From Candidatus Multivorans thiocomprendens (lineage in GTDB: Bacteria; Acidobacteriota; Thermoanaerobaculia; Multivoradales; Multivoraceae), in contig JAPVWO010000087.1 of NCBI GenBank assembly GCA_027493375.1, positions 2,853-66,852 on the forward strand: a DNA stretch of 64,000 nucleotides. Direction: 5' to 3'. The translations under genes and the position numbers were made by a program. Below are positions 7,302 to 27,836 of the stretch, piece after piece. Each line of letters starts with the position of its first letter. Position 1 is the first letter of the stretch. The notes beneath the pieces were generated by a model that had not been told where the DNA came from, made no database searches, and was given only the letters and a program-made list of their open reading frames with translations.

Positions 7302-7312
7302 TCGCACACCCG

Positions 7313-7486: not shown

Positions 7487-7511
7487 CTGGTCGGCGTCGG
7501 ACTGCATTGGT

Positions 7512-10933: not shown

Positions 10934-11066
10934 GCGCCGGGCCGGTGACGAGACCCGGCTACGTTAGCGCAGCGCTCGGCAGCCTCAGAGAATGCAGGGG
11001 CAAGCTACACTCACCGCTCCGGTTCCCCACTCGACAGCGCTTACGGCCCTGAAGGGCAAGCACACG

Positions 11067-12599
11067 ATGAGCCAACGCACACCCGTACTGGTCGGCATCG
11101 CGCAGGTGCTACAGCGCGCCGACGATCCGGCCGAAGCCCGTTCGCCGATCGCACTGATGGTCGAGGCGGTCGAGACCGGCCTCGACGACGCCAAGGCGCC
11201 CGGCCTGCGCGACAGGATCGATTCGGTGCGGGCGATGAAGGGCGTGTGGGGTTACCGGAACCCGGCGCTCATGGTGAGCGAGGCCCTCGGCCTCGCGGGG
11301 GTCGAGACCGGCCTCTCCGTGGTCGGCGGCAACCAGGTGCAGACGGTGTTCAACCAGAGTGCCCTGGACATCCAGAGCGGCCGGCGCGAGGCGATCGTGC
11401 TTTGCGCGGCCGAATGCGGCCGCACGATGGGCCGGGCGCGCAAGATGGGGATGGACCTCGACTGGCTGCAGGACGACGATCCTCCCAAGCTCCCGGACAC
11501 GAGTTACGGCGACACCCGCTGGACGCGGCACGAGATGGAGATGAACCGCGGCATCCAGCAGGCCGTCCAGTACTACTCCCTGTTCGACATTGCACTGCGG
11601 AAGCAGGGCGGCGAAACGGTCGAGGGCCACCTCGCCCGCATCGCCGAACTCTGGGCGGGATTCAACCGCGTGGCTCAGGAGAATCCCAACGCGTGGATCC
11701 GGACGCCTCTGACCGCCGCCGAGATCGGCACGGTGTCGCCCGCCAACCGGGCCGTGACCTTCCCCTACACGAAGCTGATGAACGCGAACATGCGCGTCGA
11801 CATGGCGGCGGCGCTCGTGCTCTGCTCGCTGGATGTGGCGCTCGCGTTGGGCGTACCGCGGTCGAAGATGGTCTTTCCGGTCAGCGGCGCCGACGCCGTC
11901 GACCACTACTTCGTCTCCGAGCGCGACAATCTCCACTCGTCGCCGGCGATTCGGCTGGCCGGCAAACGGGCGCTTGAACTCGCCGGCATCGAAGCGGCCG
12001 ATCTCGACTTCGTCGATGTCTACAGTTGCTTCCCGAGTTCCGTGCAGGTGGCGGCAAGAGAGCTCGGTCTCGATCCAAAGCGCCCGCTCACCGTCACCGG
12101 CGGTCTCACCTTCGGTGGCGGACCGCTCAACAGCTACGTCATGCACTCGATCGCCCGCACGGCCGAACTCCTGCGCCAAACGGACGACGGCCGCGCCCTC
12201 GTCACCGCGAACGGCGGCATGCTGACCAAGCACTCCTTCGGTGTCTACAGCGCCGGGGAACCGGATCGACCCTACCGGCACGAGGACCTGACCGCCGAGG
12301 TCCACGCACTCCCGAAGCGCGAAGCCGTGGCCGACTACGCGGGGCCGGCCGAGATCGAGTCCTACACCGTCATGTTCGGCGGCGGCAGCGCGAAGTCGAC
12401 CTCGTACCGTTCGACCTACGGCGAGCGCGAAGCGCCGAGCTTCGAACCCACCGTCGCACATCTGGCCTGCCGCCTGCCGGACGGCCGGAGGAGCTGGGCC
12501 AACGTCGAAGATCCCGACACGCTGGGCGCCATGTGCGAACAGGAGTTCTGCGGCCGACCAGTCCAACTCGACGGCGGCGGCGCCGCCGAATGCCGATGA
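11067..12599 (+). CDS. thiolase-like acetyl-CoA acetyltransferase family protein
   Basis: VLVGIAQV N-terminus. SCFPSSVQVAARELGL and NGGMLTKH thiolase C-terminal blocks. ATG at 11067 preferred over the ORF-track start at 10992. Confidence 0.7.
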   Translation: MSQRTPVLVGIAQVLQRADDPAEARSPIALMVEAVETGLDDAKAPGLRDRIDSVRAMKGVWGYRNPALMVSEALGLAGVETGLSVVGGNQVQTVFNQSALDIQSGRREAIVLCAAECGRTMGRARKMGMDLDWLQDDDPPKLPDTSYGDTRWTRHEMEMNRGIQQAVQYYSLFDIALRKQGGETVEGHLARIAELWAGFNRVAQENPNAWIRTPLTAAEIGTVSPANRAVTFPYTKLMNANMRVDMAAALVLCSLDVALALGVPRSKMVFPVSGADAVDHYFVSERDNLHSSPAIRLAGKRALELAGIEAADLDFVDVYSCFPSSVQVAARELGLDPKRPLTVTGGLTFGGGPLNSYVMHSIARTAELLRQTDDGRALVTANGGMLTKHSFGVYSAGEPDRPYRHEDLTAEVHALPKREAVADYAGPAEIESYTVMFGGGSAKSTSYRSTYGEREAPSFEPTVAHLACRLPDGRRSWANVEDPDTLGAMCEQEFCGRPVQLDGGGAAECR

Positions 12600-14365: not shown

Positions 14366-14608
14366 ATGAAGACTGCGGTTTCGATCCCGGACGACATCTA
14401 CGCGCGAGCCGAGCTTCTTGCCCGTCAGGCTGGCCGATCGCGAAGCGACGTGTACGCCGCCGCCCTCGACGAGTACGTCGCGCGCCACGCACCCGACGAG
14501 ATCACGGACGAGATGAACCGGGTCTGCGACGCTCTGGGGGAGGACAAGGAGGAGGATGGCTTCCTCGCCGCCGCCGCACACCGCGCCCTCCGACGCGTCG
14601 AGTGGTGA
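14366..14608 (+). CDS. type II antitoxin, ribbon-helix-helix (CopG/MazE-like)
   Basis: 80 aa. MKTAVSIPDDIYARAELLARQAGRSRSDVYAAALDEYV is a classic RHH N-terminus. Overlaps the toxin gene by 7 nt. Confidence 0.8.
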   Translation: MKTAVSIPDDIYARAELLARQAGRSRSDVYAAALDEYVARHAPDEITDEMNRVCDALGEDKEEDGFLAAAAHRALRRVEW

Positions 14609-14949
14609 TCAGCCAGGGCGATGTCTCCTGGGCTGAACTGCCCGAGCCGACGGGATCGGGACCAGGATTCCGCCGGCCGGTAGTCGTCGTCCAAGGCGAC
14701 GCATTGAACCGAAGTCGAGTAGCGACCGTCGCCTGCGTACCGCTGACCAGCAATCTTCGCTGGGCTGACGCTCCCGGCAACGTCCGACTGACCAGGCGGC
14801 TGACGGGATTGCCAAAGGACTCGGTCGCCAACGTCTCGCAAGTGATCGCTCTCGACCGGGTGCTCCTGGAACCTGCCGTCGCTCGCATTCCGCAAGCCAA
14901 GATCGACCTCGTTCTCTCCGGGATCGATACCGTCCTCGGACGAGAGTGA
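14602..14949 (+). CDS. type II toxin, MazF/PemK family endoribonuclease
   Basis: 115 aa. GDVSWAELPEPTGSGPGFRRPVVVVQGDALN ... VACVPLTSN ... SVANVSQVIALDR matches the PemK/MazF pattern. Confidence 0.85.
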   Translation: MVISQGDVSWAELPEPTGSGPGFRRPVVVVQGDALNRSRVATVACVPLTSNLRWADAPGNVRLTRRLTGLPKDSVANVSQVIALDRVLLEPAVARIPQAKIDLVLSGIDTVLGRE

Positions 14950-15033: not shown

Positions 15034-15340
15034 ATGCGGCGCCTCAACATCTCCGACGCGAAGACGCACCTCTCAAGGTACTTGAAGCGAGTCGAGCGGG
15101 GGAGACGATCCTCCTCTGCCGGCGCAATCTCCCGACCGCGGAGATTCGGCCGCTGGACCGAGATACCGCCACGCTGCGCCCCGTCGGCACGGTGCCCGAC
15201 CTCAGAGTTTCTCCCGAGTTCTTCGACCCTCTGCCGGACGATGTCCTCCGTGCCTTTGAAGGCGGCGCCCCGAGGAAGAAAGCGAGTCCACTTGAAGCTC
15301 CTGGCCGACGCCCGTGCGTTTCCTCTGGCTCGCCGCTGAC
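15034..15340 (+). pseudogene. decayed Phd/YefM-type antitoxin (frameshifted) plus truncated VapC/PIN toxin N-terminus
   Basis: MRRLNISDAKTHLSRYLKRVERG (frame of 15034) continues as ETILLCRRNLPTAEIRPL...VSPEFFDPLPDDVLRAFEGG in another frame. The shift maps to the G5 run at 15098-15102. TTG at 15292 then gives KLLADARAF and, after another shift, LWLAADNPLQ, the start of a PIN toxin. This ends after ~25 codons. Confidence 0.7.
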
Positions 15341-15726: not shown

Positions 15727-18700
15727 GTGGCCGCCCCCACGATCTTCGAGACCTGCCAGCCCCGCGACGACATCCTCCGCGGGGCCGTGACCGATGCCGA
15801 CTTCGCCGCCGATCTCGCGTCGGTCCTGAGCGGTTCCGGCAGTCCGGCCTACGCCGACCCCGCCCGGTTCTTCGCCAACACTTATCCCACGCGCGGTCTG
15901 CGGAATCTGCTCGCGAACGTCTGCCGCCGCCTGAGCGGGGCCGGCGGCGAGGCCGCGGCGATCTTCCGGCTCGACACCTCCTACGGCGGCGGCAAGACGC
16001 ACGGCCTCATCGCGCTGGTCCATGCGGCGCAGGGCATGCACGGCGTCGCCGACGCTTCCGAGTTCCTCGACCCGTCGCTGCTGCCAGCGGGCAAGGTGCG
16101 CGTCGCGGCATTCGACGGCGAGAACGCCGACCCCGCCAACGGGCGGGCGCTCGGCGACGGCGTTCTGGCCTACACGCCGTGGGGCGAGATCGCTTACGCT
16201 CTCGCCGGCCCGCCGGGTTACGAGCGCGTACGCAAGAGCGACGAGCTGCGGGCGGCGCCCGGGGCCGGAACGCTCCAGGAGCTGTTCGGCGGCGAGCCGA
16301 CCCTCATCCTGCTCGACGAGCTCTCCGTGTATCTGCGCAAGGTCCGGCGGCTCGACGATGCACGAGACCAGTTGACCGCCTTTCTGACCTCACTGTTCAA
16401 GGCGATCGAGAACGCACCGAAAGCCGCCCTGGTCTACACGCTGGCGATCGGCAAGGCAGACGGCGGCGCGCCGGACGCTTACAGCGAGGAGAACCGCTTC
16501 ATCGCCGACCAGATGGCCGAAGCCGAAAGCGTCTCCGCCCGCAAGGCGACGCTCCTCAACCCGACCGCGGACGACGAGACGATCCAGGTGCTCCGGCGGA
16601 GGCTCTTCGAGAGCATCGATCCTGACGCGGCGGCCGACGTCGCCGGCAAGTACCGCGGGCTCTGGTCCGCTCACGCCGACTCGCTTCCGACTTCGGTCAA
16701 CCCGTCCTCCAACGCAGAGACTTTCGCCGACAGCTACCCACTGCACCCCGAAGTCCTGGAGACCCTGACCGGCAAGACGGCGACCCTCGCCACCTTCCAG
16801 CGCGTGCGCGGCATGTTGCGGTTGCTGGCGCGCACGGTCGGCCAGTTGTGGGAAGAGCACCCGGACGACGCCACGGCCATCCACCTGCACCACATCGACC
16901 CCGGACACGAGCCGATTCGCCAGGAGATACTCACCCGGTTGGGCCAGGACGCCTACGCACCCGCCATCGCCAACGACATTGCGGGCCCGGCCGGCAGGAG
17001 ATCGCTCGCCCAGGAGATCGACGCCACCAACCACGGCAGTCTGCCACCGTACGCGGAGTACGCCGCGCGGACGATCTTCATGCATACGCTGGCGTTCAAC
17101 GAACCGCTCAAGGGACTGGCGCCCGACCAACTGCGCTACTCCATGCTCGGCCCTGAGCTGGACATCAGCTTCATCGAGAAAGCGCGCAAGAACTTCGTCA
17201 CCGAGTCCGCGTACCTGGACGACCGGCCCGCCGCGCCGCTGCGCTTCCTGGCCGAGGCGAACCTGAGCCAGATCATCCGGCGCGAGGAACAGCACATTGA
17301 CAGCGCCGAGGCTCAAGCTGAATTGAACGACCGCATCCGCCGGATCTTCGACGGTCCGGTCTTCGACGCGATCACCTTTCCGGGTGGCCCCTTCGACGTG
17401 CCGGACGAAGTGGGCGACGGCTGCCCCAAGCTCGTCGTCGTCTCCTACGACGCGGTATCCGTTGGGGCAACGGTCGACGAAGTGCCCGACTTGGTGGAAC
17501 GGATCTACTCGCGGAAGGGTGCGGAGAGCCTCTCGCTACGGGCTCTTCGGAATCACCTGGTCTTCGTCGCGGCCGAGGAAGCGCGCAAGTCGAACATGCA
17601 GGATCGGAGCCGCCGGCGGCTGGCGCTGCGCGAGCTGAAGAAGCCGGAACGTTTGGCTGAGTTGGCCGAACACCAGCAGGACCAGGTGCGCGAACAGCAC
17701 CGCCGTTCCGAGCAGGAGCTCGCGGTGGCGATTCAACAGGCATACCGGCACGTCTTCTACCCGTCCCGAAACCGGCTCGGAAGCCATCTCGTTGACCTTG
17801 CGCACACGGCCATTGACATGCAGTCGTCCTCGGAGAGCCCCGGCGCCGGCCAGCGGCAGATCGTCCGCGCGCTGCGCGACCTCGGCAAGCTGCGGCTATC
17901 GGAGGATCAGCCGGACTCTCCGGCCTACGTTCGCGACCGCACGCCGCTGAAGAAGGGACAAATCTCGACCGGCGTCCTTCGCGATGAGTTCCGTCGCGAC
18001 CCTGGACTCCCCATGCTCTCGGGGAACGATGTCTTCATCCGGGGAATCCGCCGGGGCGTTGAACTCGGCGAGTACGTCTACCAGCGCGGAGATCTCCTCT
18101 ACGGTCCCGGCGACCCGGCTCCGACGATCGAGATCGACGAACAGTCGATGATCTTCACCATGGCCTATGCCAGAAACGAGTTGATCTGGCCGCGGCCGAG
18201 CAACGAAGAACTGAAGCCGGGCACGTCCAGCGAGATCCGGGACAAACCAGACGGCCCAGAGCCTTCGCCCGAATCGGGGTTCGCTGTCACGACGGTGCCC
18301 GCCGAGTTCTCCGCCGAGGGACCTTTCAGTGAGGCGCTCATCAAGCTTTGGGAGCAGGCGCGCGACCGGCAGGTCGAGGCGCTCGCAATCTTGACTATCT
18401 CGATGTTCGAGGCGCGCGACGCGTTTCCCATGGTGAACGCGGTCAACGCGGTGTCCGGAGCGACAAAGACGATCCGGTTCGAAGGCGGCTACGAGACTCG
18501 CGACGGCGGTACTCTCGAACTGGCCTTCAGGGGCCCGCCCTCCGACGCCCAACCAGTGCGCGAGTTCCTCCAGCCGCAGTTCCGGGACGCCCCCGAGTCG
18601 ACGATTGAGGCCGCGTTCCACCTGGAGTTCACAGACGGCCTGCCGCTGGACGGCGACGCGCCTGAGCAACTCGCCGGCCAACTGACCCGGTTTGCTGGGG

Positions 18701-18792
18701 GCGCCGCACACGTCTCCGCGTCCGCACAGGCCTGCCCGGCGGACCAGCCATCCAAAGACGACAGGCCTGCCGATGACGGGGACACGGCATGA
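15727..18792 (+). CDS. DUF499-type P-loop ATPase (defence-island ATPase)
   Basis: 1021 aa. N-terminus FETCQPRDDILRG..DFAADLASVL...FFANTYPTRGLRNLL...LDTSYGGGKTHGLIAL (Walker A-like GGGKTH). Walker B LILLDELSVYL. GTG start. Stop overlaps the next start (ATGA 18789-18792). Confidence 0.75.
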   Translation: MAAPTIFETCQPRDDILRGAVTDADFAADLASVLSGSGSPAYADPARFFANTYPTRGLRNLLANVCRRLSGAGGEAAAIFRLDTSYGGGKTHGLIALVHAAQGMHGVADASEFLDPSLLPAGKVRVAAFDGENADPANGRALGDGVLAYTPWGEIAYALAGPPGYERVRKSDELRAAPGAGTLQELFGGEPTLILLDELSVYLRKVRRLDDARDQLTAFLTSLFKAIENAPKAALVYTLAIGKADGGAPDAYSEENRFIADQMAEAESVSARKATLLNPTADDETIQVLRRRLFESIDPDAAADVAGKYRGLWSAHADSLPTSVNPSSNAETFADSYPLHPEVLETLTGKTATLATFQRVRGMLRLLARTVGQLWEEHPDDATAIHLHHIDPGHEPIRQEILTRLGQDAYAPAIANDIAGPAGRRSLAQEIDATNHGSLPPYAEYAARTIFMHTLAFNEPLKGLAPDQLRYSMLGPELDISFIEKARKNFVTESAYLDDRPAAPLRFLAEANLSQIIRREEQHIDSAEAQAELNDRIRRIFDGPVFDAITFPGGPFDVPDEVGDGCPKLVVVSYDAVSVGATVDEVPDLVERIYSRKGAESLSLRALRNHLVFVAAEEARKSNMQDRSRRRLALRELKKPERLAELAEHQQDQVREQHRRSEQELAVAIQQAYRHVFYPSRNRLGSHLVDLAHTAIDMQSSSESPGAGQRQIVRALRDLGKLRLSEDQPDSPAYVRDRTPLKKGQISTGVLRDEFRRDPGLPMLSGNDVFIRGIRRGVELGEYVYQRGDLLYGPGDPAPTIEIDEQSMIFTMAYARNELIWPRPSNEELKPGTSSEIRDKPDGPEPSPESGFAVTTVPAEFSAEGPFSEALIKLWEQARDRQVEALAILTISMFEARDAFPMVNAVNAVSGATKTIRFEGGYETRDGGTLELAFRGPPSDAQPVREFLQPQFRDAPESTIEAAFHLEFTDGLPLDGDAPEQLAGQLTRFAGGAAHVSASAQACPADQPSKDDRPADDGDTA

Positions 18793-19280
18793 CGGCCCAC
18801 CCGCAGCAAACGGACCAGTTCGCTTCGATCGCCCCCCGGCATTCAGCCCCCAGCTACGAGTTGCGAGTCCGCAGACTGGGCGCTGCTCTCTCCATGTACG
18901 AGGTTTGGCAACTCCCGGCGGTGTCGACGCCCCAGATCGCCGCGCCGATTCGCGTAGCCGGCCTCAAGGGCCGCAACCTGGAGTTGGTCGAACACCGCGT
19001 CCTCCGGCGACTCTCTCAAGCCGGCATCAAGCTCGCCCGGCCTGCCGCCGAGCCGATGCACGGACTCCCTCTCAGCGAAGATCTCGCCCTACACCTGGGC
19101 CTCATGTTCCGGGCTCTCGCGCCGATGCGAAGCCGCGAGCGGATGCGCGCCGTAGCGGAAGGCATTGAACGAATGGACCGAGAGGAGGCCGCGTACTGGC
19201 TCGGCATGGCGATGCACCGGCGGCGACCACGGCGAGTCCTGGCGGCGTTGCGGACGCTGTTGACGGCGCCGCCGCGGTGA
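18789..19280 (+). CDS. small protein translationally coupled to the DUF499 ATPase (position/size consistent with the DUF3780-type accessory gene)
   Basis: 163 aa with no motif I can name. The call rests only on the ATGA coupling and on my recollection that a ~180-aa DUF3780 protein follows DUF499 in such modules. Confidence 0.35.
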   Translation: MTAHPQQTDQFASIAPRHSAPSYELRVRRLGAALSMYEVWQLPAVSTPQIAAPIRVAGLKGRNLELVEHRVLRRLSQAGIKLARPAAEPMHGLPLSEDLALHLGLMFRALAPMRSRERMRAVAEGIERMDREEAAYWLGMAMHRRRPRRVLAALRTLLTAPPR

Positions 19281-19331
19281 GGTCGTTTCAGCCGAGCCGC
19301 CAGGCCTGATCGGTGCGTTAGGCTCCCACCG

Positions 19332-20576
19332 ATGTCGGACAGCGAACCGTCAGGCCCCCAACGGCACTCTGCGCCGGCCGCGTCCGCGGAGGATGCCGGA
19401 ACATCGAGCCTCGACGGACACGGCGTCGCCGAGCCGCTGCCCGACGGTCCGAACCAAGAGCCGTCCGATGAGGCGAAGGCCGCAGCTCCAGACGCTCCCG
19501 TGGGCGAGGACATTGAGGGCCTCGACGAGCACGGCGCTTCCTGGGGCGACTATCCGATCGACTCTCTCCTGATCCGACCCGAGCACCGGACCGTCCATGA
19601 CGTGGTGCGCCGCATCGATCGCGAAACCTACATCCTGAATCCGGACTTCCAGCGCGACTTCATCTGGGACGTATCCACCCAGAGCCGGTTAATCGAGTCC
19701 ATTCTGATGCGCATTCCCCTTCCCGTTCTCTACCTCGCGGAGAACGACGACGGAAAGGTGGTCGTCGTGGACGGCCTGCAACGCCTCCGCACGTTGCAAC
19801 GCTTTCTGGATGATGAGTTGAAACTGCGCCTCCCCGACAGGCCGGACTTGCACGGCAAACGGTTTTCCGACCTCTCCGAGAAGCTCCAGAACCGCGTCGA
19901 GGACTGCGGCCTGACGCTCTACTCCATCGACTCGAAGGTGCCGGAACGCGCCCGGCTCGACATCTTCGAGCGCGTCAACAGCGGCGTTCCGCTGACGCGG
20001 CAGCAGATGCGGAACTGCCTTTACATGGGACCGGCGACCCAATTCCTCGCGAAGGAAGCCGGCACGGACCTGTTCAGGAACGCGACGGGGGGGAGTCTCA
20101 AGCAGAAGACGATGCGGGATCGGGAGTTCGTGAACCGCTTCTGCGCGTTCCACCTCTTGTCCCTCAAGGACTACGACGGAGACATGGACCGCTTCCTTGC
20201 AAGGGCGCTCGGCCGCATGAATCGAGCCAACGACGCGACGCTCCATGACGTCCGAGAGGCCTTCCACCGAACATTGACAAACAACCACATGTTGTTCCAG
20301 AAACAGGCCTTCCGGAAGCACGAGCCCGACCAGAACCGGAGAGGGGTCATCAACGCATCGCTGTGGGACGTGATGTCGACCGGTCTGGCCCCCTACGACG
20401 CGATGCGCGTGCTGGAACGAGCCGAGGCCTTCAGGGCCGCCTTCTTCGCACTGCTCCAGGACGAGAAGTTCAACGAAGCGATCACGTACGGCCCGAACGA
20501 CGCTAGGAAGGTCCGCCGCCGGTTCAGGATGGCCGGCCGGATGTTTCGGGAGACCCTGGGTGCTGACGCGGATTGA
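19332..20576 (+). CDS. DUF262 (ParB/GmrSD-N-terminal-like) domain protein without a DUF1524/HNH nuclease domain
   Basis: 414 aa. FQRDFIWDVSTQSRLIESILMRIPLPVLYL ... VVVVDGLQRLRTLQRF (DGQQR-type motif) ... FERVNSGVPLTRQQMRN. Acidic, low-complexity N-terminal ~70 aa. Confidence 0.8.
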   Translation: MSDSEPSGPQRHSAPAASAEDAGTSSLDGHGVAEPLPDGPNQEPSDEAKAAAPDAPVGEDIEGLDEHGASWGDYPIDSLLIRPEHRTVHDVVRRIDRETYILNPDFQRDFIWDVSTQSRLIESILMRIPLPVLYLAENDDGKVVVVDGLQRLRTLQRFLDDELKLRLPDRPDLHGKRFSDLSEKLQNRVEDCGLTLYSIDSKVPERARLDIFERVNSGVPLTRQQMRNCLYMGPATQFLAKEAGTDLFRNATGGSLKQKTMRDREFVNRFCAFHLLSLKDYDGDMDRFLARALGRMNRANDATLHDVREAFHRTLTNNHMLFQKQAFRKHEPDQNRRGVINASLWDVMSTGLAPYDAMRVLERAEAFRAAFFALLQDEKFNEAITYGPNDARKVRRRFRMAGRMFRETLGADAD

Positions 20577-21744
20577 ACTCCGGCACTTCAAGTGCTTCGA
20601 GTTGCTCAAGTTGCCCTTGGCGCCCCTGACGCTGCTCGCGGGGGCCAACGCGTCCGGCAAGAGCACGGTCCTGCAGGCGATCGGCCTCCTGCATCAGACG
20701 GTGAAGGACTCGCCGTTCGCAAACCGGCTGCTCCTCAACGGATCGGTGCTGCGGCTGGGAAGCGCGGTCGATGTGATCGATCAGGTGCATGGCCGACGCT
20801 CCTGCTCGATCACCCTGATCGACTCCATCCTCGGACCTGCCGGCGAGCGGCCGAACGACTCGGCCGCCTCGGGCGAGGAAAGGGAGCTTCTTCACTCCTG
20901 GACCTTCGCGGGCGAGCCAGCGGACCGCTCCTTGAGGCTGACGGCCATGCACTATGAGGACGACGTCGCCAGCGACACGCTCGAAGGCGAGGGCCTGATT
21001 CCACCCGAGATGATGGGCACTCTGCCGACTCGGCTGGAAGAGCTGACCTATCTCACGGCCGAGCGTCTGGGGCCTCGCGACTTCTATCCGCTCCGGGACT
21101 CGGAGGAGGACTCGGCAGTCGGTCCCGCCGGTGAGAACGCGGCCGCGATCCTGGAAGCGCGCCGAAGCGGCGAAGTGCTGCCGGATCTCGTCCTGGAGAA
21201 CGCGCCCCCCACTTGCCTGCTCCAGGCTCAAGCGCGCATGGCGTCGTTCTTTCCCGGCTGCGTACTCGACGTGCGGCAGGTTCCGGGGACGGGCGTCGTG
21301 ACGCTTCGCATCCGGACCTCGGACGACACCGATTTCCATCGCCCCGTGCACACGGGCTTCGGGTTGACCCAGGTGCTGCCCATGGTCGTAGCCGCTCTCT
21401 CCGCCGAGTACGACGCTCTGCTCCTGTTCGAGAACCCCGAGGTTCACCTCCATCCAGCGGGACAGGCCCGGATGGGCGTCTTCCTGGCCGAGGTCGCCGC
21501 AGCTGGCGTGCAAGTGCTCGTCGAAAGCCACAGCGACCATGTGCTGAACGGCATCCGCCGCGCCGTGAAAGCCGGAATCTTGGAACCGAACGATGCCGCG
21601 CTCCACTTCTTCTCGCCACGTTCCGCCGACGCCTCGCAAGTTCAGACACCTGCGATGGATGCTGACGGAAGGTTGGATTTCTGGCCTGACGGCTTCTTCG
21701 ACCAGTTCGACAAGGACCTGAGCGCCCTCGCGGGCTGGGATTGA
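20560..21744 (+). CDS. AAA/ABC-like ATPase with C-terminal DUF3696 motif
   Basis: 394 aa. IELRHFKCF...LLAGANASGKSTVLQAIG (Walker A), YLTAERLGPR, GFGLTQVLPMV, LLLFENPEVHLHPAGQ (Walker B), LVESHSDHVL, C-terminal FWPDGFFDQF. GTG start overlaps the DUF262 gene by 17 nt. Confidence 0.8.
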   Translation: MLTRIELRHFKCFELLKLPLAPLTLLAGANASGKSTVLQAIGLLHQTVKDSPFANRLLLNGSVLRLGSAVDVIDQVHGRRSCSITLIDSILGPAGERPNDSAASGEERELLHSWTFAGEPADRSLRLTAMHYEDDVASDTLEGEGLIPPEMMGTLPTRLEELTYLTAERLGPRDFYPLRDSEEDSAVGPAGENAAAILEARRSGEVLPDLVLENAPPTCLLQAQARMASFFPGCVLDVRQVPGTGVVTLRIRTSDDTDFHRPVHTGFGLTQVLPMVVAALSAEYDALLLFENPEVHLHPAGQARMGVFLAEVAAAGVQVLVESHSDHVLNGIRRAVKAGILEPNDAALHFFSPRSADASQVQTPAMDADGRLDFWPDGFFDQFDKDLSALAGWD

Positions 21745-22706
21745 CGCACGTGCATATCCTAGCCAACGAGCTCTCGGTTCACGGGCAGTTTCCAGACGAT
21801 CTCTCCTTTTGGAACGCCATCGGTCGGCTGATGCAAATGCGGGAGGTCGCACAGCGCCACGGTCACGAGATCTACTGCTCGCGCAGCTTTCGGCATGTCC
21901 AGCCGCGCCCTGGTGTGCGTCTCGAACCAGCTCTCGCTCGTCTGCAACGAGACAGGCGAAGCCTCTTTCTCTCTTGGCTGAATCGTGGTGGCCCCTTCTG
22001 GGACGATACCGGTCGCCACGATCCAGGCGACTGGCTGGAGTGTCCGGAGTGGCCCGAGAAGGTGGTCACCGACACGTCCGTCGGTGAAGCAGCGTTCCGC
22101 GCCCTGAGCGGGTTCAGCTGCGCACTGGTCAGCCTCAGGCCGTCGGACTGGGACTACACGCCGGTTCGCGTCTTTCGCCGGCGCGGGGACCAAGAACTGC
22201 CAGCTGAACATACGGAACTGCCGAACTGGAGGGATCCCGACTCTCTCAAGGAAGGCCTTCGGGACGCGGAACCCCACGTCCAATCGTGGACGGACCTCCG
22301 GCGCGAGACTCGCCGCTTCCCGAACCTGCGCTTCGCGCCCGACTGCCTGGATCCTCTCCGCGGCCTTCCGTTCAGCGAGGGCGCCGCCGACGAGATCCTA
22401 AGGCGGCTCGACGTTCTGAACCGCTTCGCTGGCCTCCACGGCGAGACTGACGCTCCTGCTCCCGAAAGACGCAGGCTTCATCAGAAGTACTTCCGTGGCA
22501 GGAAGGCGTGGTTCTCCGACTCCTCCGACGAAGAGAAGGCCGCGTTCCGTGCCAAGATGACTTTCCATCACCCGGACAGGTCCAGCGGACACCTGTTCTG
22601 CCCCTGGCACGGCAAGGTCAAGATCCAACAGCTCCGCATTCACTTCTCCTGGCCTGAACCGCCAATCTACGTCGTGTACATCGGCCAGAAGATCACCCGC
22701 CGGTGA
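21741..22706 (+). CDS. orphan hypothetical protein, third gene of the DUF262/DUF3696 module
   Basis: 321-aa ORF. TTG start overlaps the upstream stop (TTGA); a GTG at 21750 is an alternative. No recognisable catalytic motif. His/Cys clusters HGHEIYCSRSFRH and HLFCPWHGK. Confidence 0.6.
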   Translation: MTHVHILANELSVHGQFPDDLSFWNAIGRLMQMREVAQRHGHEIYCSRSFRHVQPRPGVRLEPALARLQRDRRSLFLSWLNRGGPFWDDTGRHDPGDWLECPEWPEKVVTDTSVGEAAFRALSGFSCALVSLRPSDWDYTPVRVFRRRGDQELPAEHTELPNWRDPDSLKEGLRDAEPHVQSWTDLRRETRRFPNLRFAPDCLDPLRGLPFSEGAADEILRRLDVLNRFAGLHGETDAPAPERRRLHQKYFRGRKAWFSDSSDEEKAAFRAKMTFHHPDRSSGHLFCPWHGKVKIQQLRIHFSWPEPPIYVVYIGQKITRR

Positions 22707-22718
22707 GGTATTCTAACC

Positions 22719-24032
22719 GTGAAACTGGCATCCGTCGAGATCGAGAACTACCGGGCCATAGAGGGTCTGGAACTGGAGCCGGACCCGGCGCTGACCGTGC
22801 TGTTCGGCACGAACGCGTGTGGCAAGACGAGCGTCCTGAGCGGGATTGCGACCGGGCTGGGCGCCATCCAGAGCTTCTTCTTTCCCAGGAAGGGGATCAA
22901 CTTCCTCAAGACCGACAGGAGGGCGAACGGAGAGCCCGTTCGCATCCGGCTGACGCCGACGGGCGGCCTCTCCTGGTTGCGGGAAGAAACCGGACGGGGG
23001 TTCGCGAAGATCACCGAGAACAAGATGACACCCTGGTACGAGTTGCGAAGGTGGCTAGCCGACATCAGAAGCAGACACGAGAAGGGCGAAGTCGTCGACC
23101 TGCCGATCATCGCGTTCTACGACACGGACCGGGTCGTTTTCGACGCGCCGCGGAGGCGGCGTGGTTTCGCCGAAGAGTTCGACCGGTTCGGCGCGCTCGA
23201 GGGCGCCCTCTCGGCGCGTACGGACTTCCGGCAGTTCTTCCGGTGGTTCTACGCGATGGAGAACGCGGAGTTCCGGGCATCGAGACGCCTAAGAGAGAGA
23301 GGACGAGATTCAGGCGCCGGCACCCGCGCCGTCGTCCCGGAACTGCATGCCGTCCGTTCCGCGATAGAGGCCATGGTCAAAGGCGTCACCTCTCCGAGAA
23401 TCGAAGAGAACCCGTTGCGGTTCGTCGTGTCGCGGGAGAACGAATCCACCGACCTCGAAGAACTAGCTTTGGATCAACTGAGCGGCGGTTACCGAGCCGT
23501 TCTCACGCTCGCGGCCGATTTGGCGCGACGCATGGCCCAAGGCAATCCGCATCTGGAGGATCCGCTGAAGTCCGAGGCCGTAGTCCTGATCGACGAGATC
23601 GAACTGCATCTCCATCCCGAATGGCAGCAGCGGATCCTGGGCGACCTGCGCCGGACGTTCCCCAACGCGCAGTTCATCGTCTCCACCCACAGTCCCCAGG
23701 TGCTAACCACGGTGGAGCCTAAGCACATTCTGGAGTTGGTCGACGATGACGGGAGTATCGTGGCGAGAGCCCCGGCGTCGAGCACGTTCGGCGTGGAGGC
23801 CGGAGACGTCCTAAGCACCGTAATGGGCGTCGACGAACGCCCGGACAACTGGTACACAACGGCGCTCAACGCGTACCGCCGCCTAGTGAGCAGCGACCAG
23901 GGCGAGTCGGAGGAAGCGCAGGCGTTGCGGACGAAATTAGAGGACGCCTCGCCCGACGACCCGGCGCTTCACAGGGCCGATCTGGAAGTCCGCCAGCGCC
24001 GGATGTTCCGGCGGATGTCCGAATCGAAGTGA
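22719..24032 (+). CDS. PtuA-like ABC/SMC-type ATPase (Septu-like system)
   Basis: 437 aa. VEIENYRAIEGLEL...VLFGTNACGKTSVL (Walker A), LSGGYRAVLTLAADL (signature), VVLIDEIELHLHPEWQQ (Walker B), FIVSTHSPQVL. GTG start with GGTGAGG ~11 nt upstream. Confidence 0.65.
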   Translation: MKLASVEIENYRAIEGLELEPDPALTVLFGTNACGKTSVLSGIATGLGAIQSFFFPRKGINFLKTDRRANGEPVRIRLTPTGGLSWLREETGRGFAKITENKMTPWYELRRWLADIRSRHEKGEVVDLPIIAFYDTDRVVFDAPRRRRGFAEEFDRFGALEGALSARTDFRQFFRWFYAMENAEFRASRRLRERGRDSGAGTRAVVPELHAVRSAIEAMVKGVTSPRIEENPLRFVVSRENESTDLEELALDQLSGGYRAVLTLAADLARRMAQGNPHLEDPLKSEAVVLIDEIELHLHPEWQQRILGDLRRTFPNAQFIVSTHSPQVLTTVEPKHILELVDDDGSIVARAPASSTFGVEAGDVLSTVMGVDERPDNWYTTALNAYRRLVSSDQGESEEAQALRTKLEDASPDDPALHRADLEVRQRRMFRRMSESK

Positions 24033-24793
24033 AGCCCATCCGAGAAGTGACCCCGCCGCCGCAAGGGCTGGCGGACTACCTGGACTTGGTGGGAAACCAG
24101 AAGTACTGGGACGAGTTTCGGTCCCACGATTCCGGCAACGCGCTTGACGAACTCCGGGAGACGTTGACTCTCAATCAGCACGGACTCTGCGCCTATTGTG
24201 AGTCGACACTCGGGCCAAACCGACGCCAACTCGAGCACGTCGTGCCCCGCAGCGAGCCGTCACACGGCGAGGCCTTGGAACTCGATGTCTCGAACATGGT
24301 GGCCTGCTGCCTCCGCGTCGGCCGCGCCGCACCGACACCGGCCGAGCGGAGCGATACTGACGCGGGGCTAAACCAGGGAGGAGGCGGAGAGAGTTGCGGT
24401 CAAGCCAAGGCCGACGTGTGGTGGAACTCCTTCCTGGACCCGCGAAGCCTGCCGCCGGCGCCGAGCCTGCTAGCCGTGCACGCCGACGGGAGCATCGAAG
24501 TCGACGAGCGCGCCTGCAAGGATGCAGGCTTCAGGCCAGAGGACGCGCGCTGCTCTATCAAGACACTGAATCTCAACGCGAGGCGCCTCCGTCACGCGCG
24601 GCACTCGCAGTGGAACAACCTTGTGGACCTCTCCGCAAACGTGACGGATGAAACGAGCATGGACACCTGGATCCGGACCGTGCTGACACCGGACGAGCGT
24701 GGACAGCTTCAGCCTTTCTTCACCACGTCCCGCTCCTTCTTCGGACGAACCGGCGAACTCGTTCTCGCCGAGCGGCCTCAGAACTGGATCTGA
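24029..24793 (+). CDS. PtuB-like HNH endonuclease (TIGR02646-type)
   Basis: 254 aa. HGLCAYCES...RQLEHVVPRS...NMVACC...CGQAK is an HNH/Cys4 arrangement. GTGA overlap with the upstream ATPase. Confidence 0.65.
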   Translation: MKPIREVTPPPQGLADYLDLVGNQKYWDEFRSHDSGNALDELRETLTLNQHGLCAYCESTLGPNRRQLEHVVPRSEPSHGEALELDVSNMVACCLRVGRAAPTPAERSDTDAGLNQGGGGESCGQAKADVWWNSFLDPRSLPPAPSLLAVHADGSIEVDERACKDAGFRPEDARCSIKTLNLNARRLRHARHSQWNNLVDLSANVTDETSMDTWIRTVLTPDERGQLQPFFTTSRSFFGRTGELVLAERPQNWI

Positions 24794-24796
24794 ACG

Positions 24797-27700
24797 ATGA
24801 CCGACGCCCGCCTCATCGAACGCTGGCTGCCGATCGCCGAACTGGGCGAGGAGTCCGCCCGCGAGCGCAGGTCGATGACCGCACTGCCGCCTACCTACTA
24901 CCTGCACGTCTGGTGGGCGCGGAGGCCGCTGGTTGCGTCTCGCGCCGCCGTGCTGGCTTCCCTGCTGCCGGCGAACGCTGACCGGGAACAGTTCCTACAC
25001 GCTGTCGGGATACACGGCGATCCTGTGGCCTCGCGACGTCGAATCGACGCTGCCCGACGGAAGGGCGAACGGTTCAAGGGCGAGGCTTACAGCTACGCCC
25101 GGGCCTTCACGTACTCGCCTCAGTCGGAAGAGCGGGAGCGCCTCGAAGGAGCCTTCGGGGCGCGTGCCGGCGTTTTCACTTGCCTCGACCCGACCGCCGG
25201 CGGCGGCAGCATTCCCTTCGAAGCGGCTCGGCTGGGCGTTCAAGCAATCGCAAACGACCTCAACCCCGTCGCCGCCTTCATCATGCAGGCCACGGTCGAC
25301 TGGCCGGTCAGGCACGGCACCGCGGTGCTCGAAGAGTTCCAGAGGTTGGCGGCCGATTTCGTCGAGCGTAGAGAGGCAGCCCTTCACGCTTGCTACCCGC
25401 CCGAGCCACAAGACAGAGCAGTCAGCACGAACTACCTCTGGGCCCGAACCGTCTCCTGCCCCTACTGCGACGGCCTCGTGCCGCTATCGCCGAACTGGCG
25501 GCTCGCGCCTGGAACCGGCGTGCGGCTGCGACCCGAAGTCACCGGCGGCCCCGGAACCGCAGGACGAGTCTGTTCGTTCGAGATCGTGGAGTCCGCGGAC
25601 GAACAGTCCACCGGGACGGTTGCGCGTGGCGACGGAACCTGCCCGTTCCCCGACTGCGGCCGGGTGATCGACGGAGACGAGATCAAGGAGCAGGCTCAGG
25701 ACGGTCGCATGGGCGAACAGCTCTATGCCGTCGTCTTCAAGCGGCGGGTCGAGACGCGGACGAAGACGGGAAGGATCCGCGAGAAGTGGGTGCGCGGCTA
25801 CCGTGCACCGCGGCCCGAGGACGACAACTCGGCGGAGATCGCGGGCCGTCTGGCCGAGAAGATGCCGGTGTGGGAGGCGTTCGACATCGTGCCGAACGAA
25901 CGATTCCCGGAGGATGGAAACGACACCCGACCGATCCAGTACGGCATGCCACTCTGGCGCGACCTATTCTCGCCCCGGCAACTGCTCTGCCATGGCACCA
26001 GCGTCGAGGTCTTCCGCGAGATGTTCGACGCGGACCAAGCGGCAAGTCCGGTTGGCGACGTTCGGAAGGCGGCCTACGGATACTTGGCCCTTTCGTTGGA
26101 CAAGCTATTGAACTACAGCGCACGAATGACGCGGTGGCACGCGAGCCGCGAGGTCCTCGCAGGCACGTTCGACCGACACGACTTTTCCTTCAAGTGGTCG
26201 TACGCCGAGATGGCACCGCTGATCACCGGACTCGGCTACGACTGGGCGATCAAACAAACCGCCAAGTGCATCGGGGAACTCGTCCGGCTCGTCCACGGCG
26301 ACACCGCTGCCGTGAACGGCACCGGACCCGCCAACCAACTCCGGCTTGCCGGCCCGAACGATGGAACGACGGTCCCAAGCGGGCCGGGCGACCTCCTCGC
26401 GTCGATTCAGCGAGAGCCCTGGGCCGGAGCCCCGGAATCGCCCCCTGTAGCGATCACCTGCAAACCAGCCGAGAGCCTCGACCACATCGAGGACGCCTCT
26501 ATCGACGTCGTCGTCATGGACCCGCCCTACTACGACAACGTGATGTACGCCGAACTGGCCGATTTCTTCTACGTCTGGCTCAGGCGCACCGCGGGGCACG
26601 TCTTCCCGGAGCTCTTCCGGCACCGCCTGACGGACAAGGAGAACGAGGCCATCGCCAACCCGGCCAGGTTCAAGGGGAAGAAAGGCGCACGGGCGCTGGC
26701 GGGGCGCGACTACCAGGAGCGCATGGCAGCTATCTTCCGGGAGTGCGCCAGGGTGCTCAAGCCGGACGGCATCATGACCCTGATGTTCACCCACAAGGCG
26801 ACCGGCGCCTGGGACGCGCTGACGACGGGACTCATGGAAGCGGGCTTCCAGATCACGGCCTCCTGGCCGATCAACACGGAGGCGGCGGGCAGCCTGCACA
26901 TCAAGGACAAGGCTGCCGCCAAGAGCACGATCTTCCTCGTTTGCCGGCCGCCCGATGATCCCGGCGCGGCCGAACTCCGGGACAGCGGAACGTACTGGGA
27001 AGACGTGGAGCCGGAAGTCGCCAAGGCGGTCCGCGACCGCGTCGGCGAGTTTCAGGACGCCGGCATCGGCGGCGTGGACCTGTACCTCGCCTGCTTCGGC
27101 CCGGCGCTCCAGCGGTTCTCGGAACACTGGCCGCTGCGGCGCGGCACGCCCCGGGAACTGCCGGCCAGCGCTCGGCGAAGAGGTCATCAGGCGACCTTGC
27201 AGCTCGAAGAGCAGGACCCTTACGCCGTCACGCCGGAGGACGCGCTCGACGTCGCACGCCGGGAAGTGAAGCGCTGGAGGCTGGAGCAACTGACCCACCT
27301 CAAGGCCAATGTGGACCTCGACCCGGCGACCGCCTTCTTCGTGCTGGCCTGGGACGCCTTCAAGGCGCCCGGTTTCTCCTACGACGAGGCGCTGCGCTTG
27401 GCCCGCGCCACGGGCGTCGACCTGGACCGCGACATCGTCGGACGGCTCGCGCTCAAGAAGAGCGGCAACCTTCAACTCTGGGACAGCGAGCGCCGGGCCG
27501 CCCGGGGCGCCCTCGGACCGGCCGACGGTTCCCGCGGGATGATCGACGCCCTCCATCACGCGGCGCACATGGCGCGCAACAGGTCGCTGGAGGAGGCCCG
27601 CGACCTGCTCGCGCGCGCCGAGGTCGACGAGGATCCGCTCTTCCTGGCCGCCTTCGAGGCCGTGCTCGAGGTGCTCCCGGTGTCCTCGACCTTCACCGGC

Positions 27701-27832
27701 GTCGCCCTCAAGGGTGAGATCGCCGCCTTCAGCAACGACTTCGAGGCTCTCTACAACCTCCGGCGCTTCGCCTTCGCCGACCAGATCGATGAGCCGGAAC
27801 AGCTCGCGATCTGGCGCCGAGACGCGACGTGA
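24797..27832 (+). CDS. DUF1156-domain N6-adenine DNA methyltransferase
   Basis: 1011 aa. N-terminal DUF1156 signature ERWLPIAELGEESARERR...YYLHVWWARRPLVASRA. AdoMet motif CLDPTAGGGSIPFEA. Zn-ribbon insert CPYCDG...CPFPDCG. Catalytic motif IV VVMDPPYYDNVMY. Confidence 0.85.
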   Translation: MTDARLIERWLPIAELGEESARERRSMTALPPTYYLHVWWARRPLVASRAAVLASLLPANADREQFLHAVGIHGDPVASRRRIDAARRKGERFKGEAYSYARAFTYSPQSEERERLEGAFGARAGVFTCLDPTAGGGSIPFEAARLGVQAIANDLNPVAAFIMQATVDWPVRHGTAVLEEFQRLAADFVERREAALHACYPPEPQDRAVSTNYLWARTVSCPYCDGLVPLSPNWRLAPGTGVRLRPEVTGGPGTAGRVCSFEIVESADEQSTGTVARGDGTCPFPDCGRVIDGDEIKEQAQDGRMGEQLYAVVFKRRVETRTKTGRIREKWVRGYRAPRPEDDNSAEIAGRLAEKMPVWEAFDIVPNERFPEDGNDTRPIQYGMPLWRDLFSPRQLLCHGTSVEVFREMFDADQAASPVGDVRKAAYGYLALSLDKLLNYSARMTRWHASREVLAGTFDRHDFSFKWSYAEMAPLITGLGYDWAIKQTAKCIGELVRLVHGDTAAVNGTGPANQLRLAGPNDGTTVPSGPGDLLASIQREPWAGAPESPPVAITCKPAESLDHIEDASIDVVVMDPPYYDNVMYAELADFFYVWLRRTAGHVFPELFRHRLTDKENEAIANPARFKGKKGARALAGRDYQERMAAIFRECARVLKPDGIMTLMFTHKATGAWDALTTGLMEAGFQITASWPINTEAAGSLHIKDKAAAKSTIFLVCRPPDDPGAAELRDSGTYWEDVEPEVAKAVRDRVGEFQDAGIGGVDLYLACFGPALQRFSEHWPLRRGTPRELPASARRRGHQATLQLEEQDPYAVTPEDALDVARREVKRWRLEQLTHLKANVDLDPATAFFVLAWDAFKAPGFSYDEALRLARATGVDLDRDIVGRLALKKSGNLQLWDSERRAARGALGPADGSRGMIDALHHAAHMARNRSLEEARDLLARAEVDEDPLFLAAFEAVLEVLPVSSTFTGVALKGEIAAFSNDFEALYNLRRFAFADQIDEPEQLAIWRRDAT

Positions 27833-27836
27833 TGCG

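Follow-up and report, generated by a model that had tools for sequence, protein, structure and literature searches.

A probable Type I Menshen (NsnABC) module embedded with a Septu pair in an Hma locus of an uncultivated high-GC bacterium

The closest described counterpart of the locus reported here is Menshen, a member of which, from Solibacillus silvestris, blocks T2, T4, T6 and Fado according to the account of Millman et al. 2022 given in PMC12065111, and functions on its own in both E. coli and B. subtilis (PMC12065111). Loss of the DUF262 gene abolished defence by the S. silvestris system (PMC10952713). A bioinformatic study by Li et al. 2025 catalogued 1997 Menshen loci and dissected the system into a sensor, an ABC-ATPase transducer and a nuclease effector, with a predicted NsnB4-NsnC2 complex in which contact is made via DUF3696 and the N-terminal domain of NsnC (PMC12065111). 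Menshen systems as yet have no published biochemical mechanism.

The second system that bears on the locus is Hma, also named the DUF499-centred BREX-related system, of which the carriage of embedded auxiliary defence genes is a described property (PMC12839542; bioRxiv 10.1101/2024.01.29.577857). Defence systems, typically Septu, are often nested in Hma; in 96.7% of cases nested genes run in the direction of the system around them, and the preprint of Payne et al. permitted at most three embedded genes between hma genes (bioRxiv 10.1101/2024.01.29.577857). PADLOC takes only HmaA, HmaB and HmaC as the Hma core.

The stretch of DNA analysed here (the window, 64,000 nucleotides) comes from an uncultivated host with a genome GC content of about 66-68%, whose nearest relatives are Acidobacteriota MAGs. 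A triad of genes at 19332-22706 sits, together with a Septu pair (PtuAB), between hmaC/DUF7680 and hmaB of an Hma locus:

15727-18792, + strand: hmaC, DUF499 ATPase, upstream frame gene of Hma (PADLOC HmaC 1.1e-95; Pfam DUF499 2.2e-38)
18789-19280, + strand: DUF7680 gene (Pfam DUF7680 2.2e-42)
19332-20576, + strand: nsnA, candidate Menshen sensor (PADLOC NsnA, Pfam GmrSD_N, motifs I-III)
20560-21744, + strand: nsnB, ABC-type ATPase with a C-terminal DUF3696 helix (PADLOC NsnB, Pfam, motifs)
21741-22706 (likely true start GTG 21750), + strand: nsnC, candidate effector (PADLOC NsnC, homologues, AlphaFold2, Foldseek)
22293-22703, + strand: predicted RelE/ParE-like C-terminal domain of NsnC, residues 185-321 (AlphaFold2 model, Foldseek)
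22719-24032, + strand: ptuA, Septu ATPase of the second embedded system (PADLOC PtuA 1.8e-110)
24029-24793, + strand: ptuB, Septu HNH nuclease (PADLOC PtuB 4.7e-49; NCBIfam TIGR02646 2e-16)
24797-27832, + strand: hmaB, DUF1156 N6-adenine methyltransferase, downstream frame gene of Hma (PADLOC HmaB 1.6e-72; Pfam DUF1156 3.3e-16)
27837-31022, + strand: hmaA, PLD/HKD nuclease-SNF2 helicase fusion (NCBIfam phospholipD_antiphage 1.1e-114; Pfam PLDc_2, SNF2-rel_dom, Helicase_C)

Homology indicates that the triad is very probably a Type I Menshen (NsnABC) anti-phage system, acting as an autonomous three-gene module. The three proteins match PADLOC profiles at full length (NsnA 6.5e-112, NsnB 5.4e-98, NsnC 1.2e-96), the next-best unrelated profiles being much weaker (PD-T4-2_A 5.5e-37; PDC-M55A 2.1e-31), and the genes are adjacent and co-directional in the Menshen order: DUF262 protein, ABC ATPase, third protein. 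An earlier reading made from the letters alone (the sequence-only reading) had considered this combination to be without experimentally characterised function and the best candidate in the window for a novel system, to be checked against DefenseFinder or PADLOC. Because PADLOC assigns all three proteins to Nsn families, the triad is not a new system but an already named one, of which the S. silvestris member has been validated experimentally (PMC12065111). The co-occurrence of the third gene with a DUF262/DUF3696 pair, which the same reading had suggested looking for across genomes, was borne out: of 80 species-level loci, 79 have nsnA and nsnB homologues immediately upstream of that of nsnC, the remaining one being cut by a contig end, and an independent context look-up (locus L001) returned the same arrangement.

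The tight packing of the three genes is likewise as first described. The genes nsnA (414 aa) and nsnB (394 aa) overlap by 17 nt, the GTG of nsnB lying at 20560 and the TGA of nsnA at 20574-20576, and a TTGA is seen at the nsnB/nsnC junction. Comparison with homologues makes GTG 21750 (318 aa) a more likely start for nsnC than 21741 (321 aa): the closest homologue (P0001; 97% identical) is 318 aa long with the N-terminus MHILANELS, and others begin with MD(L/I)L at the position matching GTG 21750. The apparent 4-nt TTGA overlap may therefore instead be a 5-nt spacer.

All motifs listed for the first two genes by the sequence-only reading are present, and both of its domain calls, a DUF262 protein devoid of a DUF1524/HNH half and an ABC-like ATPase ending in DUF3696, agree with Pfam. 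NsnA consists of a low-complexity segment (residues 1 to about 80), a ParB-type DUF262 domain (about 90-231) and a C-terminal region reaching residue 414, and its residues 75-410 align to positions 38-384 of the 385 in the PADLOC NsnA profile. Pfam identifies GmrSD_N (DUF262; 1.9e-23) and no DUF1524/HNH half, NCBIfam assigns no family, and the PADLOC profiles of HEC-05 and HEC-06 cover only residues 85-156. Motifs I-III of the DUF262 domain read QRDFIW (107-112), DGLQR (147-151) and FERVN (212-216); the N-terminal tail of about 80 residues is acidic and rich in Pro, Ala and Ser, and there is no additional folded N-domain. NsnB displays a Walker A motif (GANASGKS, 28-35), a GFG signature (266-268), a Walker B motif with an EN end (FEN, 290-292), an H-loop (ESHSDH, 322-327) and a DUF3696 region (342-390) that includes FWPDGFF (374-380), with Pfam matches to AAA_15 (1.8e-19), AAA_21 (2e-18) and DUF3696 (6.1e-16). 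The EN-type Walker B and the GxG signature are peculiarities of NsnB (PMC12065111).

The third protein had been regarded as an orphan with no assignable motif. This stands as far as Pfam and NCBIfam are concerned, which name no family for NsnC, even when its two halves are searched separately against Pfam at E up to 10; the orphan status does not, as the protein has at least 845 homologues and its full-length PADLOC match is to the NsnC model PDLC03896 (residues 6-321 against profile positions 3-319 of 319). Seven additional NsnC models match less strongly, and PDLC03879, which we assume to be the S. silvestris-type model, matches at only 3.3e-14. An AlphaFold2 model (pLDDT 89.4 for the full protein and 91.5 for the C-domain) divides NsnC into an alpha/beta N-domain (about residues 1-180) and a candidate RelE/ParE-like (BECR) C-domain (about 185-321). 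In Foldseek comparisons of the C-domain with the PDB, approximately 37 of the 44 top matches are toxins of the RelE/ParE/YafQ/YoeB/HigB/MqsR type, each individually non-significant (best E 0.16, probability 0.77; target-normalised TM-scores 0.55-0.59), making RelE/ParE-like (BECR) a candidate fold for this domain. With the full-length protein the best E was 0.59, RelE-type toxins were already enriched and PIN matches were absent, so that the inactive PIN-like N-domain of Menshen NsnC was not recovered in this search; against viral structures the C-domain gave nothing significant, one 'cytotoxic translational repressor' appearing at E 0.34. At the sequence level, a profile of 40 NsnC homologues returned only noise from all PDB sequences (E about 1), phmmer with RelE, YoeB and YafQ of E. 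coli as baits gave 0 matches in all loci translated in six frames, and hhalign of the C-domain alignment against single RelE, YoeB and YafQ sequences, which are weak templates, gave a signal not above shuffled controls. Across 40 homologues of 45-78% identity, H290, K292, R299, H301, Y313 and K317 are invariant, and the H290/R299/H301 cluster is consistent with an H-R-H triad described in PB-BECR1, a domain of the archetypal NsnC (PMC12065111). We note that ParE-type members of this superfamily are not RNases, so that the substrate does not follow from the fold by itself.

Homology and the published in-silico model together suggest how the module may work. NsnA, a ParB-type DUF262 NTPase whose C-terminal domain would bind DNA, would sense incoming phage DNA, possibly modified, and signal to NsnB, the ABC-type ATPase predicted to form a tetramer whose C-terminal DUF3696 helices would hold NsnC by its N-terminal domain. 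On binding or hydrolysing ATP, NsnB would then release NsnC or activate it allosterically, and the RelE/ParE-like (BECR) domain of NsnC may cleave RNA by means of the invariant histidine-arginine-histidine cluster, shutting down translation or phage gene expression in what would probably be an abortive infection-like response. The division into DUF262 sensor, ATPase switch and third-gene effector that the sequence-only reading had put forward agrees with the in-silico Menshen model (PMC12065111). Since the module and the Septu pair are embedded, in the same orientation, in a methylation-based Hma locus, Menshen is most likely a complementary layer beside Hma, not a part of it.

Neither the Hma locus nor the adjacent Septu pair had been noticed in the sequence-only reading. 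The DUF7680 gene has a 4-nt overlap with the 3' end of hmaC, which it follows in every related locus; nsnA begins 51 nt further downstream, 12 nt separate the end of nsnC from the start of ptuA, and the likely start of hmaA is ATG 27837, where HMM coverage opens, not GTG 27714. Carriage as mobile-element cargo was considered and rejected: the window contains no tRNA gene, and no integrase or transposase family among the selected ORFs scanned (approximately 12.0-37.8 kb). The nine genes from hmaC to hmaA share one orientation, are never more than 51 nt apart and have no convincing terminator between them, and judging from this layout they are probably co-transcribed.

Such packing would also suit a composite system, in which Menshen in this clade is a working part or extra restriction arm of Hma, HmaB methylation marking self and NsnA sensing unmethylated DNA or else depending on Hma proteins. 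The triad occupies the identical position, co-oriented with and flanked by hmaC/DUF7680 and hmaB, in 19 of 80 species-level relatives; further loci retain Hma gene fragments at the triad edges; and Li et al. raised the possibility that DUF262 targets non-modified genomes where Menshen adjoins methylases (PMC12065111). Among embedded loci, the pairwise divergences of Nsn proteins are also correlated with those of Hma proteins (Spearman 0.75-0.83), a correlation that shared host phylogeny alone may explain. We nevertheless hold a composite system to be unlikely. Menshen genes are not core Hma, the family not being restricted to Hma loci: 61 of the 80 lack an intact Hma around the triad, and one free triad has housekeeping surroundings, being preceded by dcd and a STAS-domain gene and followed by gyrB. 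On the Menshen tree, embedded copies are dispersed (14 parsimony changes for 20 embedded tips), and the order of the cassettes is not constant, being Menshen-Septu in some loci and Septu-Menshen in others. Unrelated autonomous systems are, moreover, often embedded in Hma (bioRxiv 10.1101/2024.01.29.577857), and the S. silvestris system is active by itself.

A more specific history can be suggested tentatively, and we regard it as rather doubtful: that this Menshen subfamily, far from neighbouring Hma by chance, has a particular, long-standing tie to it, cassettes being inserted, swapped and lost at a single defined junction that follows the 3' end of the DUF7680 gene and precedes the 5' end of hmaB. 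The 'free' copies, several of which bear Hma scars at their edges, would then be escapees or survivors, and Menshen, its DUF262 sensor perhaps detecting modified DNA, would functionally complement the methylation-based Hma much as BrxU does BREX. The Menshen and Hma literature examined describes no junction-specific exchange and no link of Menshen with Hma, and PMC12065111 makes no mention of Hma, DUF499 or DUF1156.

A DNA-targeting, type IV-like mode of restriction, in which NsnA recognises modified phage DNA in the manner of GmrSD, BrxU and SspE and the effector cuts DNA instead of RNA, appears very improbable. T-even phages carry hypermodified cytosines. The validated Menshen protects against phages of this group (PMC12065111), in GmrSD and SspE it is the DUF262 domain that senses modified DNA (PMC12065111, PMC10952713), and GmrSD-like proteins in BREX and Hma have been proposed to complement methylation-based systems (bioRxiv 10.1101/2024.01.29.577857), all of which would fit such a mode of action; against it, Pfam finds no DUF1524/HNH, Toprim or PLD domain in any triad protein, and the sole candidate for a catalytic domain resembles toxins of the RelE/ParE/YafQ type, most of which are RNases. 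That the triad is a previously undescribed three-gene defence system, as the silence of Pfam and NCBIfam on gene 3 and of NCBIfam on gene 1 might suggest, is practically excluded by the full-length Nsn matches of all three genes and by the existence of a dedicated 2025 catalogue of such loci (PMC12065111).

The main value of the present analysis is thus one of correction, in that a candidate that looked novel by sequence alone is a catalogued system and is not to be prioritised as a discovery. Menshen being mechanistically unsolved by experiment, a subfamily with this many homologues, a confident NsnC model and an invariant H/K/R/H cluster offers concrete residues for mutagenesis. The window further provides a clean case of a nine-gene stack, apparently a single operon, in which Hma encloses both Menshen and Septu, and the Hma scars around free Menshen copies bear on the exchange of embedded defence cassettes.

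Among known systems, Hma encloses the triad physically and most relatives of this Menshen are without it. HEC-03, an Hma-embedded candidate found to pair an ABC ATPase with a PIN-type protein and validated for defence activity (Payne et al. 2024 preprint), resembles the triad in that residues 264-382 of NsnB match a PADLOC model labelled HEC-03B (4.3e-29), but this match spans only part of NsnB, and HEC-03 has two genes, no DUF262 sensor and a VapC-like PIN protein. PD-T4-2 was rejected, its PD-T4-2_A profile scoring 125.7 bits on the DUF262 protein against 372.6 bits for NsnA. Septu (PtuAB), PARIS (AriAB) and Gabija (GajAB) have in common with Menshen an OLD/AAA_15-type ABC ATPase controlling a bound or fused nuclease, and Li et al. 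predict a GajA-like NsnB tetramer holding NsnC much as PtuA holds PtuB (PMC12065111); Menshen differs by its separate DUF262 sensor, its DUF3696 tail and its predicted RelE-like effector in place of HNH or Toprim. As identities for the triad, Septu was discarded, the PtuA, GajA and AriA profiles matching NsnB weakly (1e-14 to 1e-22) and a genuine Septu pair adjoining the triad, and so was Gabija/OLD, NsnB ending in DUF3696 without Toprim and its GajA and Old matches being partial (about 1e-14). The type IV enzymes GmrSD, BrxU and SspE (DUF262-DUF1524) share the ParB-type DUF262 NTPase with QRxxxW, DGxQR and FxxxN motifs, a helical DNA-binding region after DUF262 and frequent nesting in methylation-based systems; the triad was not assigned to them because the DUF262-DUF1524 fusion is missing, its effector being a separate protein reached via a separate ABC ATPase. 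Type I Menshen, with its inPIN + BECR-type NsnC (Millman et al. 2022; PMC12065111), differs from the window copy in that the latter comes from an uncultivated high-GC genome, has an acidic NsnA tail and carries an NsnC of the PDLC03896 subfamily. The two agree in gene order, in all three protein families, in the DUF262 motifs, in the EN Walker B, GxG signature and DUF3696 tail of NsnB, in an NsnA free of a folded extra N-domain, and in an NsnC of two domains, of which the C-terminal one, a candidate RelE/YafQ-like domain, holds a conserved H-R-H cluster.

The three consecutive genes designated nsnA, nsnB and nsnC are a real feature of the window and represent an instance of Menshen (NsnABC), a named, experimentally validated and already known defence system. 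Their positions are as follows:

19332-20576, forward strand: nsnA (gene 1), 414 aa
20560-21744, forward strand: nsnB (gene 2), 394 aa
21741-22706, forward strand: nsnC (gene 3), 321 aa as the longest ORF

The identification follows from the full-length matches of all three products to PADLOC-DB profiles: NsnA at 6.5e-112 (residues 75-410 against profile positions 38-384 of 385), NsnB at 5.4e-98 (residues 1-392 against 1-344 of 345) and NsnC at 1.2e-96 (profile PDLC03896; residues 6-321 against 3-319 of 319). The runner-up, unrelated profiles in the same database fell far behind: PD-T4-2_A (5.5e-37), PDC-M55A (2.1e-31) and GajA, PtuA and Old (~1e-14). The proposal of the sequence-only reading that the triad is a novel, uncharacterised system is thus contradicted by the match to a named one. 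Its description of the genes is otherwise largely accurate. The three ORFs, the 17-nt overlap of genes 1 and 2 (GTG 20560, TGA 20574-20576) and the TTGA where gene 2 meets gene 3 are all found in the sequence, as is every motif that it quoted: QRDFIW (107-112), DGLQR (147-151) and FERVN (212-216) in NsnA; GANASGKS (28-35), FEN (290-292), ESHSDH (322-327) and FWPDGFF (374-380) in NsnB. Pfam likewise agreed with its domain assignments, matching NsnA to GmrSD_N/DUF262 (1.9e-23) with no DUF1524, matching NsnB to AAA_15, AAA_21 and DUF3696 (6.1e-16), and assigning no family to NsnC, in which no motif had been recognized. What probably does not stand is the TTGA overlap as a gene junction. The closest NsnC homologue (P0001; 97% identity, 318 aa) begins MHILANELS and further homologues begin at the equal position, so that the nsnC start is most likely GTG 21750, which would leave a 5-nt spacer.

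Li et al. 2025 (PMC12065111) catalogued 1997 Menshen loci. The Solibacillus silvestris system is described there, after Millman et al. 2022, as giving protection from the E. coli phages T2, T4 and T6 and the B. subtilis phage Fado, and loss of the DUF262 gene removes the defence according to a review (PMC10952713).

The co-occurrence of the three genes, which the sequence-only reading had put forward for checking, is well supported. When one genome per species was scanned, 301 loci with NsnC relatives emerged, the best 80 of which were kept; in 79 of these 80, NsnA and NsnB homologues lie directly upstream of the NsnC relative on the same strand, the sole exception being a 2.5-kb contig that terminates inside nsnB. 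Hosts among these best 80 of 301 loci include Acidobacteriota, Alpha- and Gammaproteobacteria, Binatia, Nitrospirales, Thermodesulfobacteriota, Rhodothermales, Cyanobacteria, Spirochaetia and Dehalococcoidia, among others, and the closest NsnC relatives in the species scan (67-74% identity) come from Acidobacteriota MAGs (Candidatus Multivorans, Thermoanaerobaculia, Vicinamibacteraceae), a probable pointer to where the window originates. An intact Hma system is absent around the triad in 61 of the best 80 of 301 loci, and the Menshen triad therefore behaves as an autonomous unit; one of these 61 copies has housekeeping genes around it, dcd and a STAS-domain gene on its upstream side and gyrB on its downstream side.

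In the window the triad forms the middle of nine co-oriented genes with almost zero intergenic space (15727-31022). Three defence systems are stacked here, Menshen and Septu splitting Hma (hmaC, DUF7680 gene, hmaB, hmaA):

15727-18792, co-oriented with the triad: hmaC (DUF499)
18789-19280, co-oriented with the triad: DUF7680 gene
19332-22706, forward strand: nsnABC
22719-24032, co-oriented with the triad: ptuA (Septu)
24029-24793, co-oriented with the triad: ptuB (Septu)
24797-27832, co-oriented with the triad: hmaB (DUF1156 methyltransferase)
27837-31022, co-oriented with the triad: hmaA (PLD-SNF2 helicase)

The longest ORF for hmaA starts at GTG 27714, with a 119-nt overlap with hmaB; judging from profile coverage and relatives, the true start is probably ATG 27837, 4 nt past the hmaB stop. 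The DUF7680 gene shares 4 nt with the 3' end of hmaC, and each of the 19 embedded relatives has it after hmaC. It seems to be a fourth gene conserved in this Hma subtype, and PADLOC-DB offers no model for it. A consensus scan, weak evidence for such an organism, gave no convincing forward-strand terminator inside the array and a first plausible one at 31383, past hmaA.

Upstream, the island is bordered by a MazEF-like pair (14366-14949) and a solute-binding protein gene, and downstream by an ORF resembling a pPIWI-associated nuclease (31136-32209, reverse strand) and a BCCT transporter gene. The MazEF-like pair is a type II toxin-antitoxin module made up of overlapping genes for an RHH antitoxin (14366-14608) and a PemK/MazF toxin (14602-14949). 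The downstream ORF (357 aa) weakly matches pP_pnuc_1, a predicted pPIWI-associating nuclease family (5.1e-08), with no Argonaute gene nearby. No tRNA genes lie within the window. A Phd/YefM-type antitoxin gene (~15034-15310), for which no partner toxin was seen, carries an apparent frameshift in a five-G run (15099-15103) that places its N-terminus, MRRLNISDAKTHLSRYLKRVERG, and the remainder, ETILLCRRNLP..., in different frames. Once repaired conceptually, the protein matches PhdYeFM_antitox (4.2e-07), and the gene is either a pseudogene or the product of a homopolymer sequencing error.

The nesting of defence systems in Hma has already been described: 62.7% of Hma loci hold embedded genes, typically Septu, 96.7% of embedded genes point the same way as the flanking system, and embedded GmrSD-like proteins were argued to complement methylation-based systems (Payne et al., bioRxiv 10.1101/2024.01.29.577857). 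A 2026 paper (PMC12839542) renamed Hma a DUF499-centred BREX-related system and described embedded 'backup effectors'. Less well documented are the occurrence of Menshen in a fixed Hma slot, the variable cassette order and the Hma fragments at free copies; Hma, DUF499 and DUF1156 are unmentioned in the text of Li et al. 2025 (PMC12065111). The window Hma holds five guest genes and the DUF7680 gene between hma genes, above the limit of three embedded genes in the published survey. The same slot (hmaC, DUF7680 gene, triad, hmaB, all on one strand) recurs in 19 of the best 80 of 301 loci, and eight of these 19 also carry Septu. The order is Menshen-Septu in the window, L003, L005 and L006, and Septu-Menshen in L035 and L060. 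Embedded copies lie scattered across a neighbour-joining NsnA+B+C tree, on which parsimony needs 14 changes to account for 20 embedded tips. Several non-embedded Menshen copies bear Hma gene fragments at their borders:

L008 7450-7521, L055 7661-7723, L062 7463-7693 and L063 7424-7702: 3' end of the DUF7680 gene directly upstream of nsnA
L041 and L046 (Hma fragments at 10977-11114, and at 7239-7677 and 10987-11170, respectively): first 40-46 codons of hmaB directly downstream of nsnC
L079 6797-7385: HmaC(1-89)::HmaA(931-1041) deletion fusion upstream of the triad
L040 6967-7110 and 12271-12597: duplicated hmaB 5' ends at the cassette borders

These remnants suggest that, at the DUF7680/hmaB junction, Hma was lost or cassettes were exchanged more than once. 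In the closest locus, L003 from a Ca. Multivorans MAG, the Hma frame is far more conserved relative to the window (HmaC 94%, HmaA 92%, DUF7680 89% identity) than the guests (NsnA 80%, NsnB 74%, NsnC 74%, PtuA 69%, PtuB 43%), and HmaB is at 78%; PtuB of L006 is 73% identical to that of the window. This gap points to allele swapping or, alternatively, fast evolution of the cassettes. Nsn and Hma protein divergences are correlated (Spearman 0.75-0.83), a pattern for which shared host phylogeny can account. Altogether, the slot, order, tree, fragment and L003 data suggest that cassettes were repeatedly exchanged or lost at a single junction and that this Menshen clade has long shared its history with Hma; they do not establish functional dependence.

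For NsnC, the candidate effector, homologues number at least 845. Aligning 40 that share 45-78% identity with the window's NsnC revealed invariant F258, D260, S261, S262, E265, C287, W289, H290, G291, K292, R299, H301, W304, V312, Y313, G315, K317 and T319 within the last 65 residues, and a conserved His/Lys/Arg cluster lies in a small, confidently modelled C-terminal domain (AlphaFold2 pLDDT 91.5 and pTM 0.87 for residues 185-321 alone; 89.4 and 0.80 for the whole protein). No Foldseek match of this domain to the PDB is individually significant, the top one being 3oei_C (RelE3/RelK; E 0.16, probability 0.77, target-normalised TM-score 0.57). About 37 of the 44 top matches are RelE, ParE, YafQ, YoeB, HigB or MqsR-type toxins, with a like enrichment for the full-length model. 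Together with the invariant H290, R299 and H301, these matches fit the BECR-type domain and H-R-H triad of the archetypal NsnC (PMC12065111). We consider the RelE-like nature of the modelled domain likely rather than proven; Pfam, a PDB sequence-profile search and hhalign against RelE, YoeB and YafQ all came back empty. The PIN-like nature of the NsnC N-terminal domain was not reproduced in the present analysis.

The sketch of a sensor, an ATPase switch and an effector made from the sequence alone is sound and agrees with the division into sensor, transducer and effector that Li et al. 2025 (PMC12065111) proposed for Menshen. NsnA would sense phage DNA through its DUF262 NTPase and DNA-binding region; NsnB, as a tetrameric ABC ATPase, would grip NsnC through DUF3696; an ATP-driven change would then free or activate NsnC, whose RelE-like domain may cut RNA and thereby shut down translation. 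Phage resistance requiring the DUF262 gene is reported for a Menshen homologue (PMC12065111, PMC10952713). What the locus still offers is its pattern of embedding in Hma and a set of defined residues through which the Menshen mechanism could be probed.

Catalytic-type motifs are intact in NsnA and NsnB. N-terminal to its DUF262 domain, NsnA carries nothing but a low-complexity tail of ~80 residues, enriched in A, S, D, P, G and E, as in 'Type I' of Li et al. (PMC12065111). We note that this acidic, Pro/Ala/Ser-rich extension, encoded by 19332-19570, was aligned by tblastn in the nearest Acidobacteriota relatives only, distant homologues aligning from residue ~45-59, so that the true nsnA start codon is uncertain. 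As in the NsnB-type ATPases of Li et al., Walker B of the window NsnB ends in EN instead of DE (FEN 290-292), a GxG signature (GFG 266-268) takes the place of SGG, and an H-loop is followed by the DUF3696 tail.
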